Positions 41,801 to 44,800 of a DNA stretch of 63,132 bases are shown here, piece after piece (positions within the stretch are counted from its first letter, which is position 1; every line of letters begins with the position of its first letter). Under the pieces are notes generated by a model. That model was not told where the DNA came from, ran no database searches, and saw nothing but the letters and a program-made list of their open reading frames with translations. The stretch comes from a virus (lineage: Duplodnaviria > Caudoviricetes), in the IMG/VR virus record IMGVR_UViG_3300027759_000092, positions 1-63,132 of that record. One strand, 5' to 3'. Position numbers and translations under genes: made by a program.

Positions 41801-44800
41801 TTCATAGAACACGGGTGACTCATAGCCGTGATCGCTAATGATGTCTTTGAAACCTTGGGTAGGTTTGTATTCAGCTATAGGCTTAACACCTAGAACCCGA
41901 ATTCCTTCGCTATCTTCAATGCTTCTTCTCGTGTGAGTTTCGGGTTCCGATTCATTGCGTCCTCTATAGGATCGTACGGCTTCTCTGAGGGAGTATTTTG
42001 GCCCGTAGTCAGACTTCCCACGAAGTTCCTCAGCGTCCTTGACCGCTCCTCCGGATTCATCCCTTCGGTTAAGTTCTGTATCGAAGACCACACTGGGTCT
42101 TGCTCGTCCAGTAGTCTTTCCGGACTGAGCGATGATTGCTTCTTCGTATCCGATGTCATCGGCTTTCCTTCCGCTTAGTTTTTCATAGAGGCGTTTCTCA
42201 TAATACCAAAGCGCCGCTTGGATGTCAGCTAAAGTTAAATTAATGCCGTCTTTACGCAACATAGTTTGCGCTTTACGGCCTGCGTCATACATGAACTTGC
42301 GGTCGGTAGCTGTAAACGGGGCTTCCTCCAGCATCTCAAATTCATTCTTGTAGATGGTGTTAGCCATCTTCTCAAGGTTGTGTTCAAACAACAGTTGGTC
42401 GTAGGCGGCTCCGGCTTTGGCTTTAGCTTTCTTAAACCATGCTGGTTTCTTGTCTTTCTTGGCAGGCTCTTTCCCCTTAGCCAAATACTCAAGCTCAGTG
42501 CTATAGCCGTATTCCTCGTACTTATTACGCAGGGGAATCGTAGCGGCAATCACCTCATCACGGGTTGCGCTAGGCATTTCCATCATGTCACGGAACTTGT
42601 TGATAGACGCTTCAGTTGCCTGAGGAATTAACAAGCCACGCATACGATTGACGGAGCGAGTCCACCACAGATCCATTGTCAGGTAGCCTTCAGAGCCAGA
42701 GAGGTTGGCGTAGAACGCACCAAGCTTAGGCCCAAAGTAGACTGCGGCGGCAGGGACAGTCGTGTCCTTGAGGTAGCTACCGTCAGTGTCTTCACCCATC
42801 TCACGCAGACGGGCATTCATTTCCTTGACTGTGATCTCCTCTAGGAGAACCTTCTCAAACTTTGTACCGTGCAGATTAAGCAGGTCTTGGATCATCTTGA
42901 GGTTGTTCTCAAGAGCCGTAGCTCTACGGTTGCCCATAGCAACCAGAGGCTTACCATCACGCAGTTTGGAATACAGGGTAATGGCGTTATCAATGTTCTT
43001 GTTAACTTTCTCGCCATTGGATGTAACTGCCACCAATGCAGAGAATACTGAACGGGCGTGTTTGTTATCGCTCAGTTCAGGGAAGCGGCTTGCCAAACGT
43101 TTAACCGCTTTGGGATAATTGTTTGAATACCAACCCAGACCTGTACCCGTTGTGGCTTGAGTGCCTAACTGAAATGCAACCTCATCTGCCATTGCCTTAG
43201 CAAGTTGAGTAGATTGCTCTTCGCTCAGGTTGCTTCGATCCATCTGGCCGAAACGATCTATGGTGTATTGGTTTAAAGCACTGGCGATGTCCCGGACATT
43301 ATTGAATATGCCACGCTTGGCCTTGGTGTTTAAACCAAGATCCTGCTGGGACGCAGTCATGTCCTGCTCCATAAAGTTACGAGTAGACAGCGGCGTGTAA
43401 ACGGGCTGTTTTTCATCCCCGTAGAAAGCACCAAAGGATGTAAGCGACTTTTTAACCTCTTTGTTTGCCTCGGCAGGCTTAGAAGGCTTGAGTTCACCCT
43501 TCTCAATCTTGCCAAAGATATCCTTGTAGGACTCGTAGCCTTGACCATTGAGGTATGACTTGAGGGTGGAGAAGAAATTACGAAGCTTGTTCAGCAACGC
43601 ATTCAGCATTCCGGGAGGAGCTTTTTCCACATCAAAATCACCAAAGGCATCTGCGATTGCTTCTTCTTCCAACAACTCTTTGATCTTTGCGTCAGACATG
43701 ACGGCACGGGGAGGTTTGTCAGGGTTGTTCTTATTCCACTCAGCAGGCATTGTTTGATTGACTTCAATGTACGCATCGTAACGGCTGACAATCCGTCCAT
43801 CGGGCAGTCTAGTCTGGTTACCCTTAAGGTATTTATTTATCCACTCAGCATTAGCCTGACGCTGTAAAGAAGCCCACTGGGCATCAGTAAAGAACCCTAG
43901 TTCTTTTAAAGCATGAAGGGCTTCATGACGCATAACCCTGACAGGTTGAGATGCATCAATAGCCAACTGAATAACTTTGGCGGCGTAGGAGCCTTCTGCA
44001 CCCTGTTCAATGGCATCAACAATCTTTAGGGCTACATCCTGTAGACCGAACCGTCCCAACATAGACTGAAGGGTAGCCTGTGCGGCTTGAAGCTTTTGCG
44101 CTTGTTCTGGTGTTCTAGGTTGTGGTGCTGGCGCTGTAGCCCGGCGTTCAATCTCTGCGTTTACACGAGCCTTTAACTTAGGAGACTTGGTCTTTGCCAA
44201 CTCCTGAATTTCTTTGTCTGACAGGTCTTCAAAGATAGCCTGCTCGGCTTCCTCACGGGTAGCCTTAGTTCCTTTGACAGTCTCACCCTTGGTAACTCGG
44301 TAGGTCTTGGGCGTAACCTTCTTAACGCCAACAGGAACAACAGTGACAGGCCTGCTATAGATCTCTTCTTGATTCTTAAGGTCGGCAATGACGGGCATAG
44401 CCTCGTCCAGCACAGCTTGGTGCGCTTCTTCTGCGGTCTTGTATGCAGGTGTATCAACCAAGCCGTTGAGTTCAAATTTGTGTAATTCGTTCTCGGACTT
44501 AGCAATTTTTTGATCCTGAGCCTTTAAACCTTCTTGCGTTTTCTTAAGTTCAGCCTGTGCAAAACTGTTTAGCTTCTCAGCATGAGCCTCGGCTTTCTCT
44601 TGGGTGTCCATAGAGCGAACCTTTTGGTCACCACTCATCACATCATAGGACTCTGCCTGCTCCTCTTCAACACCAACTTCTTCCTGAATGTCGTATCCAC
44701 TAGGTGTAGAACGTGAGGGAACACTAACTTTATTGCCCTCCGTAACAATGCTTCCGCTCTTGGTTGCATCGTTAAGTAGTGCATTAACAGCAGAACCTTT

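Follow-up and report, generated by a model that had tools for sequence, protein, structure and literature searches.

A short open reading frame (ORF) nested out of frame inside the gene of a giant phage protein is very probably a real overprinted gene, translated separately from the frame around it. The ORF lies in a viral DNA of 63,132 nucleotides (nt) (Duplodnaviria; Caudoviricetes; IMG/VR record IMGVR_UViG_3300027759_000092, positions 1 to 63,132), which was analysed over its whole length and is called the window below. Its product of 89 amino acids (aa), P0001, consists of two modules that accompany the two domain cassettes meeting in this part of the giant protein. A sequence-only reading of the window had reported a same-strand ORF of this length in an alternate frame, with GGAAGGA 6 nt before its ATG. 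Coordinates, frame and spacing were verified and are collected in Table 1 with those of the other features.

Length did not single the ORF out. When the giant gene was shuffled 300 times among synonymous codons, 79% of the shuffles contained one or more same-strand ATG ORFs of at least 89 aa in an alternate frame. Since ORFs of this size are common in shuffles, the case for a real gene rests on relatives and not on the single sequence. The comparative data led to rejection of the chance-ORF reading, although length alone was non-significant.

Conservation of the nested reading frame

Viral contigs were scanned with the surrounding main-frame protein, giving 25 loci of 54-89% identity. An ATG ORF of 55-89 aa was present at the same place and in the +1 frame in the window and in 25/25 loci, with 20 unique peptides. 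The ATG lies 11 codons past the main-frame ...LWYYEKRLYE and requires GAT, not GAC, at a main-frame Asp codon; GAT was kept in 21/21 unique nucleotide rows. A purine-rich run before the ATG was kept in the same 21/21 rows, as GGAAGGA, GGGAGAA, GGAGTAA, GGGGTAA, GGGAGGA or GGGAAGA. The nested ORF has, in all of these rows, a conserved start codon and ribosome-binding site (RBS) of its own, as an overprinted gene should. Sites of the AAGGA/GGAG type stand 5-9 nt 5' of the ATG in many other genes of the window and resemble that of the nested ORF. Nucleotides flanking the nested start were almost invariant across the related loci, and stops were absent from the first 50 nested codons (0/20 unique rows). 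The sequence-only reading had named stops, or loss of ATG or RBS, in homologous linkers as evidence that would speak against a gene; neither loss of the start signals nor a stop within those 50 codons was seen. The main frame was open across the overlap in all loci. The +2 frame had a median open span of 35 codons.

Codon periodicity changed frame at the nested start. In the upstream cassette, entropy by main-frame codon position was ∼1.2 at position 3 and ∼0.4 at positions 1-2 (21 unique rows). From the nested ATG onward, the same rows gave only 0.4-0.55 at position 3, whereas position 1, which is third in the nested frame, rose to 1.26.

Ratios of nonsynonymous to synonymous substitution rates (dN/dS) were calculated pairwise by NG86 in both frames, a comparison that the sequence-only reading had proposed. 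Because NG86 was developed without overlapping frames in mind and the loci are relatives of one another, the values are contrasts and not independent counts: dN/dS was 0.085 at a dS of 1.62 for the main frame of the upstream cassette, and over nested codons 27-50 it was 0.34 in the nested frame vs 2.15 in the main frame. Over nested codons 1-26, dS was ∼0.33 in both frames, so both are constrained there. When only loci whose ORF ends after the first module were used (13 unique loci), codons 27-50 gave 0.38 nested vs 2.45 main. Over the linker parts, nested values of 0.22-0.38 and main-frame values of 1.6-2.5 point to purifying selection on the nested frame. A scan of synonymous-codon identity along the giant gene, made with three relatives (overall synonymous-codon identity 0.43-0.45), had its top windows at residues 1443-1533, which hold the nested ORF, and at residues 1731-1771, which hold a second nested ORF described below.

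The main frame across the overlap had been described as a disordered linker. That description fails for nested codons 1-26, which overlie the conserved main-frame KADDIGYEEAIIAQ...PSVVF, and fits the remainder, a linker rich in G/R/S/E/D. The earlier proposal of an overprinted gene, and no shadow, is borne out by the conserved ATG and Shine-Dalgarno-like run, by the switch of periodicity and dN/dS, and by free-standing homologues.

At the DNA level, the region had no match in the phage collection. A tblastn search of the same collection with the nested peptide gave one suggestive match, in Limnohabitans phage DC33 (E 0.03, 15/27 residues). The match lies within the giant coding sequence of DC33, again in the +1 frame, and ends ...FGF-stop just before the homologous downstream cassette; the main frame is poorly conserved at this stretch. 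The DC33 record (L001, PQ492659.1) is 39 kb long with one gene of >3000 codons and carries the taxonomy Inoviridae, which looks like a mis-assignment. DC33 is a cultured phage with a module-B ORF and offers a testable case.

Modules, cassettes and free-standing homologues

Portal, large terminase, primase/helicase and virion structural protein families were found in large ORFs of the window, which is phage DNA by these marks. Pfam detected LPD38 (E 4e-36) and two ART-PolyVal stretches (E 3e-31) in the giant protein. These domains make it a polyvalent protein in the sense of the main text of Iyer et al. (2017; PMC5512222), and its GNAT fold and phage structural context agree with this. A GNAT family that typically adjoins ART domains in phage polyvalent proteins is described in the same main text.

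The first module of the nested protein, module A, lies over the C-terminal end of the upstream cassette and runs on into the spacer that follows. It follows the upstream cassette in the window and in 25/25 loci, irrespective of the next cassette, and the ORF stops after it where the GNAT-fold cassette does not follow. Module B, comprising two helices, occurs among the related loci only where the GNAT-fold cassette follows. Its dN/dS was 0.22 nested vs 1.57 main, with the greatest variability at the third position of nested codons (15 unique nested rows). Modules A and B are split by stops in two loci (L006, L007), and in DC33, L053 and others module B is joined to a different N-terminal module. 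A third module (...YDLxNLPFDPxxEA...) was observed in +1-frame ORFs of L006 and L007, between A and B around 2130..2330, and also in L173 upstream of 901, before a different cassette. From its occurrence in two settings, the nested-ORF modules are themselves shuffled.

The nested stop falls on main-frame IRVLG, with which the GNAT-folding segment begins, in agreement with the earlier placing of the stop at the start of a GNAT-like cassette. The AlphaFold2 model of this downstream cassette was compared with the PDB by Foldseek and matched several GNAT acetyltransferases with probability 1.00 (best 1ghe, E 1e-4, TM 0.50-0.54). On the predicted structure, the GNAT alpha/beta fold is assigned confidently; the best fold matches are resistance-type and other acetyltransferases. 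Pfam gave no match to the cassette, and a PDB sequence search with it returned designed repeat proteins only.

Relatives of the GNAT-fold cassette numbered 395 in viral contigs. The best 80 of the 395 were analysed, and 60 unique loci had enough upstream sequence. A +1 ATG ORF of at least 40 aa, ending between -15 and +30 nt from the cassette start, was found in 60/60 of these loci; a +2-frame ORF ending there was found in 0/60. The linkage persisted where the upstream cassettes were unrelated (L072, L075, L076) and held at ∼43-56% cassette identity, becoming unclear at 37%. In high-GC viral contigs (L146, 1210..3006) the GNAT-fold cassette forms the first domain in a protein of 598 aa, whose low-complexity N-terminal extension contains a nested 52-aa +1 ORF (1292..1450). 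The parts of the nested gene therefore move with cassettes, as had been suggested: B precedes the GNAT-fold cassette in the 60/60 unique loci, and A follows the upstream cassette regardless of what comes next.

The upstream cassette gave a sub-threshold match to Pfam DUF7178 (E 0.0085) as its best family signal, and no match in a PDB profile search (E≤1), NCBIfam or PADLOC. Its former label, HhH-glycosylase-like, had no support: no HhH-GPD match was found in Pfam (E≤1), NCBIfam or the PDB profile search (E≤1).

A protein database search with the nested peptide returned 40 small proteins, most of them in one 87-aa family. Members of this family are ∼60% identical to the window peptide over the full length and begin at the homologous Met. 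The 87-aa gene was free-standing in 13/15 metagenome loci, where the other two forward frames are open for no more than 32 codons; the remaining 2/15 are nested cases inside giant ORFs. The free-standing genes come with a GGAG site and a start codon of their own, and many stops interrupt the frame that would correspond to the main one. They are located on small elements that encode a Mob_Pre relaxase and, judged by eye from its translation, a tyrosine-recombinase-like protein. Directly downstream of the 87-aa gene is a metzincin/RTX-type exoprotein in 5/11 loci inspected; other neighbours vary. Two of the metagenome contigs (L044, 1..6340; L038, 1..5356) are small integrative mobilizable elements that bear the free-standing gene. 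Both also carry a conserved minus-strand gene of ∼115 aa, as well as large metzincin/RTX-repeat exoproteins with DUF5648, of which there are one or two. Co-occurrence of homologues with the same effector domain, a check proposed in the sequence-only reading, was thus found for the GNAT cassette in viral loci (60/60) and not for the free-standing genes, whose short contigs carry no cassette.

A profile search of 1.84 billion representatives gave 59 matches at E≤0.001, mostly small proteins in which the modules are variously combined, B always being C-terminal. These proteins show free recombination among modules A, A2, B' and B. The matches also included the giant proteins P0054 (2884 aa) and P0067 (4271 aa); P0054 was a repeat-rich mucin-like protein and was set aside as a repeat artefact. 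A scan of genome contigs gave 7 loci, one of which (L058) was an Ffh/SRP54 gene with a chance MTPEERSKP match and was rejected; the other six were assumed to be chance matches of the same kind.

AlphaFold2 modelled the nested protein (33 rows) as four helices with pLDDT 76.5 and a low pTM of 0.35.

Proposed role and alternatives

In the arrangement that we propose, ribosomes would initiate at the nested Shine-Dalgarno-like site and ATG within the giant mRNA and produce a small protein predicted to have four helices. Its two modules would belong to two cassette units, A to that of the upstream cassette and B to that of the GNAT-fold cassette. The two units abut at a main-frame KYSLRE junction, with the result that A and B are fused into one protein in the window. 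Across the overlap the main frame would for the most part need only to stay open, as a 'shadow' linker. The most likely task of the small protein would be that of an antidote or holding factor, keeping the GNAT-fold effector harmless or foldable in the phage-producing cell. Effector and small protein would be translated together from one mRNA, and the small protein would stay in the producing cell while the giant protein goes into the virion and is injected. An effector that must remain harmless until packaging and injection would be well served by a co-translated holding factor.

Several points weigh against this proposal. Toxicity of the GNAT cassette is an assumption, and module A persists alone where no GNAT cassette follows. 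An overprinted ORF must end where a structured domain begins, so the site of its end could in part reflect constraint. The strict module-B motif was found in only 18/63 unique GNAT loci; in 28 other GNAT loci inspected by eye, about half had a clearly related tail and about half were loosely similar, G(L/M)(T/S)xE(E/Q)A.... Pfam, PHROGs, NCBIfam and PADLOC gave the nested protein no likeness to a known family, antitoxin or immunity protein. Its predicted fold had no convincing relative by Foldseek in the PDB (best E 2.9) or BFVD (best E 1.7), and the ESM Atlas gave no usable match. No homologue of the GNAT-fold or upstream cassette was present on the 15 metagenome loci (40.8 kb in total, contigs ≤6.3 kb). 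Lake-water RNA libraries (small shares) covered the region partly, as contigs; the region being found only on RNA-library contigs, where DNA carry-over is possible, neither translation nor certain transcription is shown by them. A predicted complex of the GNAT cassette and the nested protein (score 0.02, mark 0.32) speaks neither for nor against binding.

Given the cassette-free homologues, the A-only forms and the absence of antitoxin likeness, the view that the nested protein is a cognate partner of the flanking cassettes, as antidote or chaperone, is finely balanced. That it is specifically an inhibitor is doubtful.

The strongest competing explanation, a tenable one that nonetheless falls short of an even chance, is a real small protein whose function, for instance regulation, DNA or RNA binding or anti-defence in mobile elements, is unrelated to the cassettes. 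The linkers would then be the only stretches that tolerate a second frame, and co-travel would result from recombination breakpoints at cassette junctions. Free-standing homologues on integrative mobilizable elements, with neither cassette on the contig and with varying neighbours, agree with such a function, as do the free recombination of A, A2, B' and B in small proteins, the A-only forms and the lack of likeness to any known antitoxin or immunity family. However, linkage in 60/60 loci across differing upstream contexts, down to ∼43-56% identity, exceeds what short-term hitch-hiking predicts, and a further cassette is accompanied at the equivalent place by a nested ORF unrelated to this one.

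The nested codons could also be read as an alternative C-terminal tail, if some ribosomes shifted +1 near the cassette end and stopped after 55-89 codons to give a truncated polyvalent protein ending ...FGF. The +1 frame is open and selected, and in most rows a rare AGG/AGA codon and a Shine-Dalgarno-like run lie just upstream. A rare Arg codon and a Shine-Dalgarno-like run can both stimulate +1 shifts. Against such a tail, a synonymous codon choice in the main frame preserves the ATG in 26/26 sequences, the window included, and most rows have a +1 stop 5 codons 5' of the ATG, which leaves only ∼15 nt for the shift. In 4/21 unique rows (L017, L018, L021 and L026) GTA or AAG stands in place of the Arg codon, so no slippery site is conserved. 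Free-standing homologues start at the homologous Met, and the ORF ending at the GNAT start opens with ATG and reaches at least 40 aa in 60/60 loci. A frameshifted tail is unlikely on these grounds.

Conservation at the nucleotide level without translation, through a junction for cassette-exchange recombination or an RNA structure with the ORF as a by-product, is very unlikely. In its favour, the ∼80 nt that follow the ATG hardly vary and dS there is low in either frame, and a chance ORF of such length arose in 79% of shuffles. Against it, the nested frame shows three-base periodicity and dN/dS of 0.2-0.4 at dS >1, its amino-acid pattern is kept despite nucleotide change, and free-standing protein-coding homologues exist. 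Re-initiation of the GNAT cassette at the nested stop was considered and dropped, there being no in-frame start codon nearby when the sequence was read by eye.

The overprinted partner gene that we favour was compared with known systems. In Bacillus subtilis, comS is a small same-strand gene lying out of frame, with its own start, in the giant modular enzyme gene srfA. Its product is a regulator that acts on an adaptor/protease pathway and not on the product of the host gene. The nested ORF resembles comS in its placing and own start. Unlike it, the nested ORF is tied to module junctions and is not the only one in its gene; there is no sequence relation between the two. In lambda Rz1 within Rz, and in overprinted genes of small phages, the nesting is also same-strand and +1, the products cooperate and both frames are selected. 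Here, unlike in Rz1/Rz, the host gene encodes a 3549-aa polyvalent protein, and the nested genes lie on inter-cassette linkers, are mobile with cassettes, number at least two per gene and have free-standing homologues.

GNAT type II toxin-antitoxin pairs (TacAT, AtaRT, KacAT) are co-inherited, with the antitoxin gene first and ending at the GNAT start. A small gene immediately upstream of the GNAT coding sequence, as in these pairs with ribbon-helix-helix (RHH) antitoxins, was found in 60/60 unique loci. In contrast to them, the GNAT domain here is a cassette in a polyprotein and not a separate toxin, and the nested protein has no RHH/DUF1778 match: no domain of this type was found by Pfam or NCBIfam in P0001, in P0012 or in the 15 members of A3.

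As in polymorphic toxin/immunity cassettes (Zhang et al. 2012; PMC3482391), effectors are exchangeable here and each has a small companion gene. Immunity genes of polymorphic toxins are, however, separate downstream genes and are not known to be overprinted. Module B differs in being upstream and inside the same reading unit, and the giant protein is of phage virion type and not a secreted bacterial toxin.

The host gene belongs to the polyvalent proteins of Iyer et al. (2017), and the nested genes are an addition to what their main text describes. The words 'overlapping' and 'frameshift' are absent from that main text (PMC5512222), and no mention of nested genes was seen in it. No published description of nested genes in polyvalent proteins was found in the literature searched; this is not proof of absence. 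Companion genes overprinted on the inter-cassette linkers of polyvalent proteins, moving with cassettes and numbering at least two per gene, appear to be new. Same-strand nested genes, and the logic of a cassette plus a companion, are themselves already known.

Nested out-of-frame genes are almost never reported by gene callers, and such proteins are therefore missing from phage annotation. The evidence in the present case is unusually clean, with two nested genes in one giant gene, both situated where exchangeable effector cassettes meet. More could be sought by a simple rule: linkers of giant phage proteins can be screened for a change of frame in the codon periodicity. If the nested proteins are partners, they would explain how a packaged, potentially self-harming multi-enzyme protein is produced safely. 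They would also show how effector and partner stay joined through cassette shuffling, a new layout for the toxin/immunity theme. It is conceivable, though unlikely, that polyvalent proteins in general are fused two-gene units of partner and effector; partners overprinted on linkers would then form exchangeable hidden effector/antidote or effector/chaperone pairs, and the free-standing copies on integrative mobilizable elements would be orphan immunity genes against injected effectors.

Second nested reading frame and other features

The second nested ORF, in the next linker of the giant gene, has AAGGAG 7 nt 5' of its ATG. It was kept in the +1 frame wherever the next cassette follows; L004 and L007, in which another cassette comes after the GNAT-fold one, lack it. 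Its core motif was present in L171 and missing in L170, both at 50% cassette identity. dN/dS was 0.235 in the nested frame vs 0.75 in the main frame (six unique rows). The sequence is unrelated to that of the first nested ORF and had one database homologue. No nested ORF of this kind was found at the ART-cassette junctions at residues 2056, 2262 and 2521.

The sequence-only reading had regarded the other alternate-frame ORFs of the giant gene as shadows that lack a clear RBS. This was correct for the 104-aa TTG ORF, which served as a control and was rejected as a gene: periodicity there follows the main frame only, and stops interrupt it in nearly half of the rows. It was not correct for the second nested ORF, which is conserved and has the AAGGAG site.

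Table 1. Positions of features in the window
Feature	Position	Strand	Description
Giant polyvalent virion-type protein gene, main frame	35867..46516	minus	Single 3549-aa ORF, amid phage structural genes
Second nested ORF	41107..41271	minus	+1 frame, 54 aa plus stop; linker between GNAT-fold cassette and next cassette
GNAT-fold cassette of main frame	41348..41902	minus	From IRVLG; AlphaFold2 pLDDT 83.9, pTM 0.80
Nested gene P0001	41890..42159	minus	ATG start, 89 aa plus stop; +1 frame relative to main frame
Module B of nested protein	41893..41976	minus	Codons 62-89; YDPIEDAM..NP.LTREEAL..A..FGF, then stop; 15 unique nested rows
Module A of nested protein	42004..42159	minus	Codons 1-52; basic N-terminus, DEQDPVWSS, LTxGMxPEER...L..FVxSL helix; window and all 25 loci
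Upstream conserved cassette	42083..43570	minus	Ending ...LWYYEKRLYEKLSGRKADDIGYEEAIIAQ...PSVVF; 12-row alignment A5, 68% mean column identity
Shine-Dalgarno-like run	42166..42172	minus	GGAAGGA, 6 nt before nested ATG
104-aa TTG ORF (control)	42235..42549	minus	+1 frame of upstream cassette; broken by stops in 10/21 unique rows, open in 11/21

A motif of the type (K/R/P/E)(F/L/Y)S(L/F)(R/K/P) is repeated in the main frame at cassette borders, at residues 556, 1507, 2056, 2262, 2521 and 2682. The copy at residue 1507 lies where module A of the nested ORF gives way to module B. This recurring boundary motif may be a recombination junction or a processing site. A zinc-protease-like motif, HEALHAL, was also seen by eye in the translation of the giant protein.

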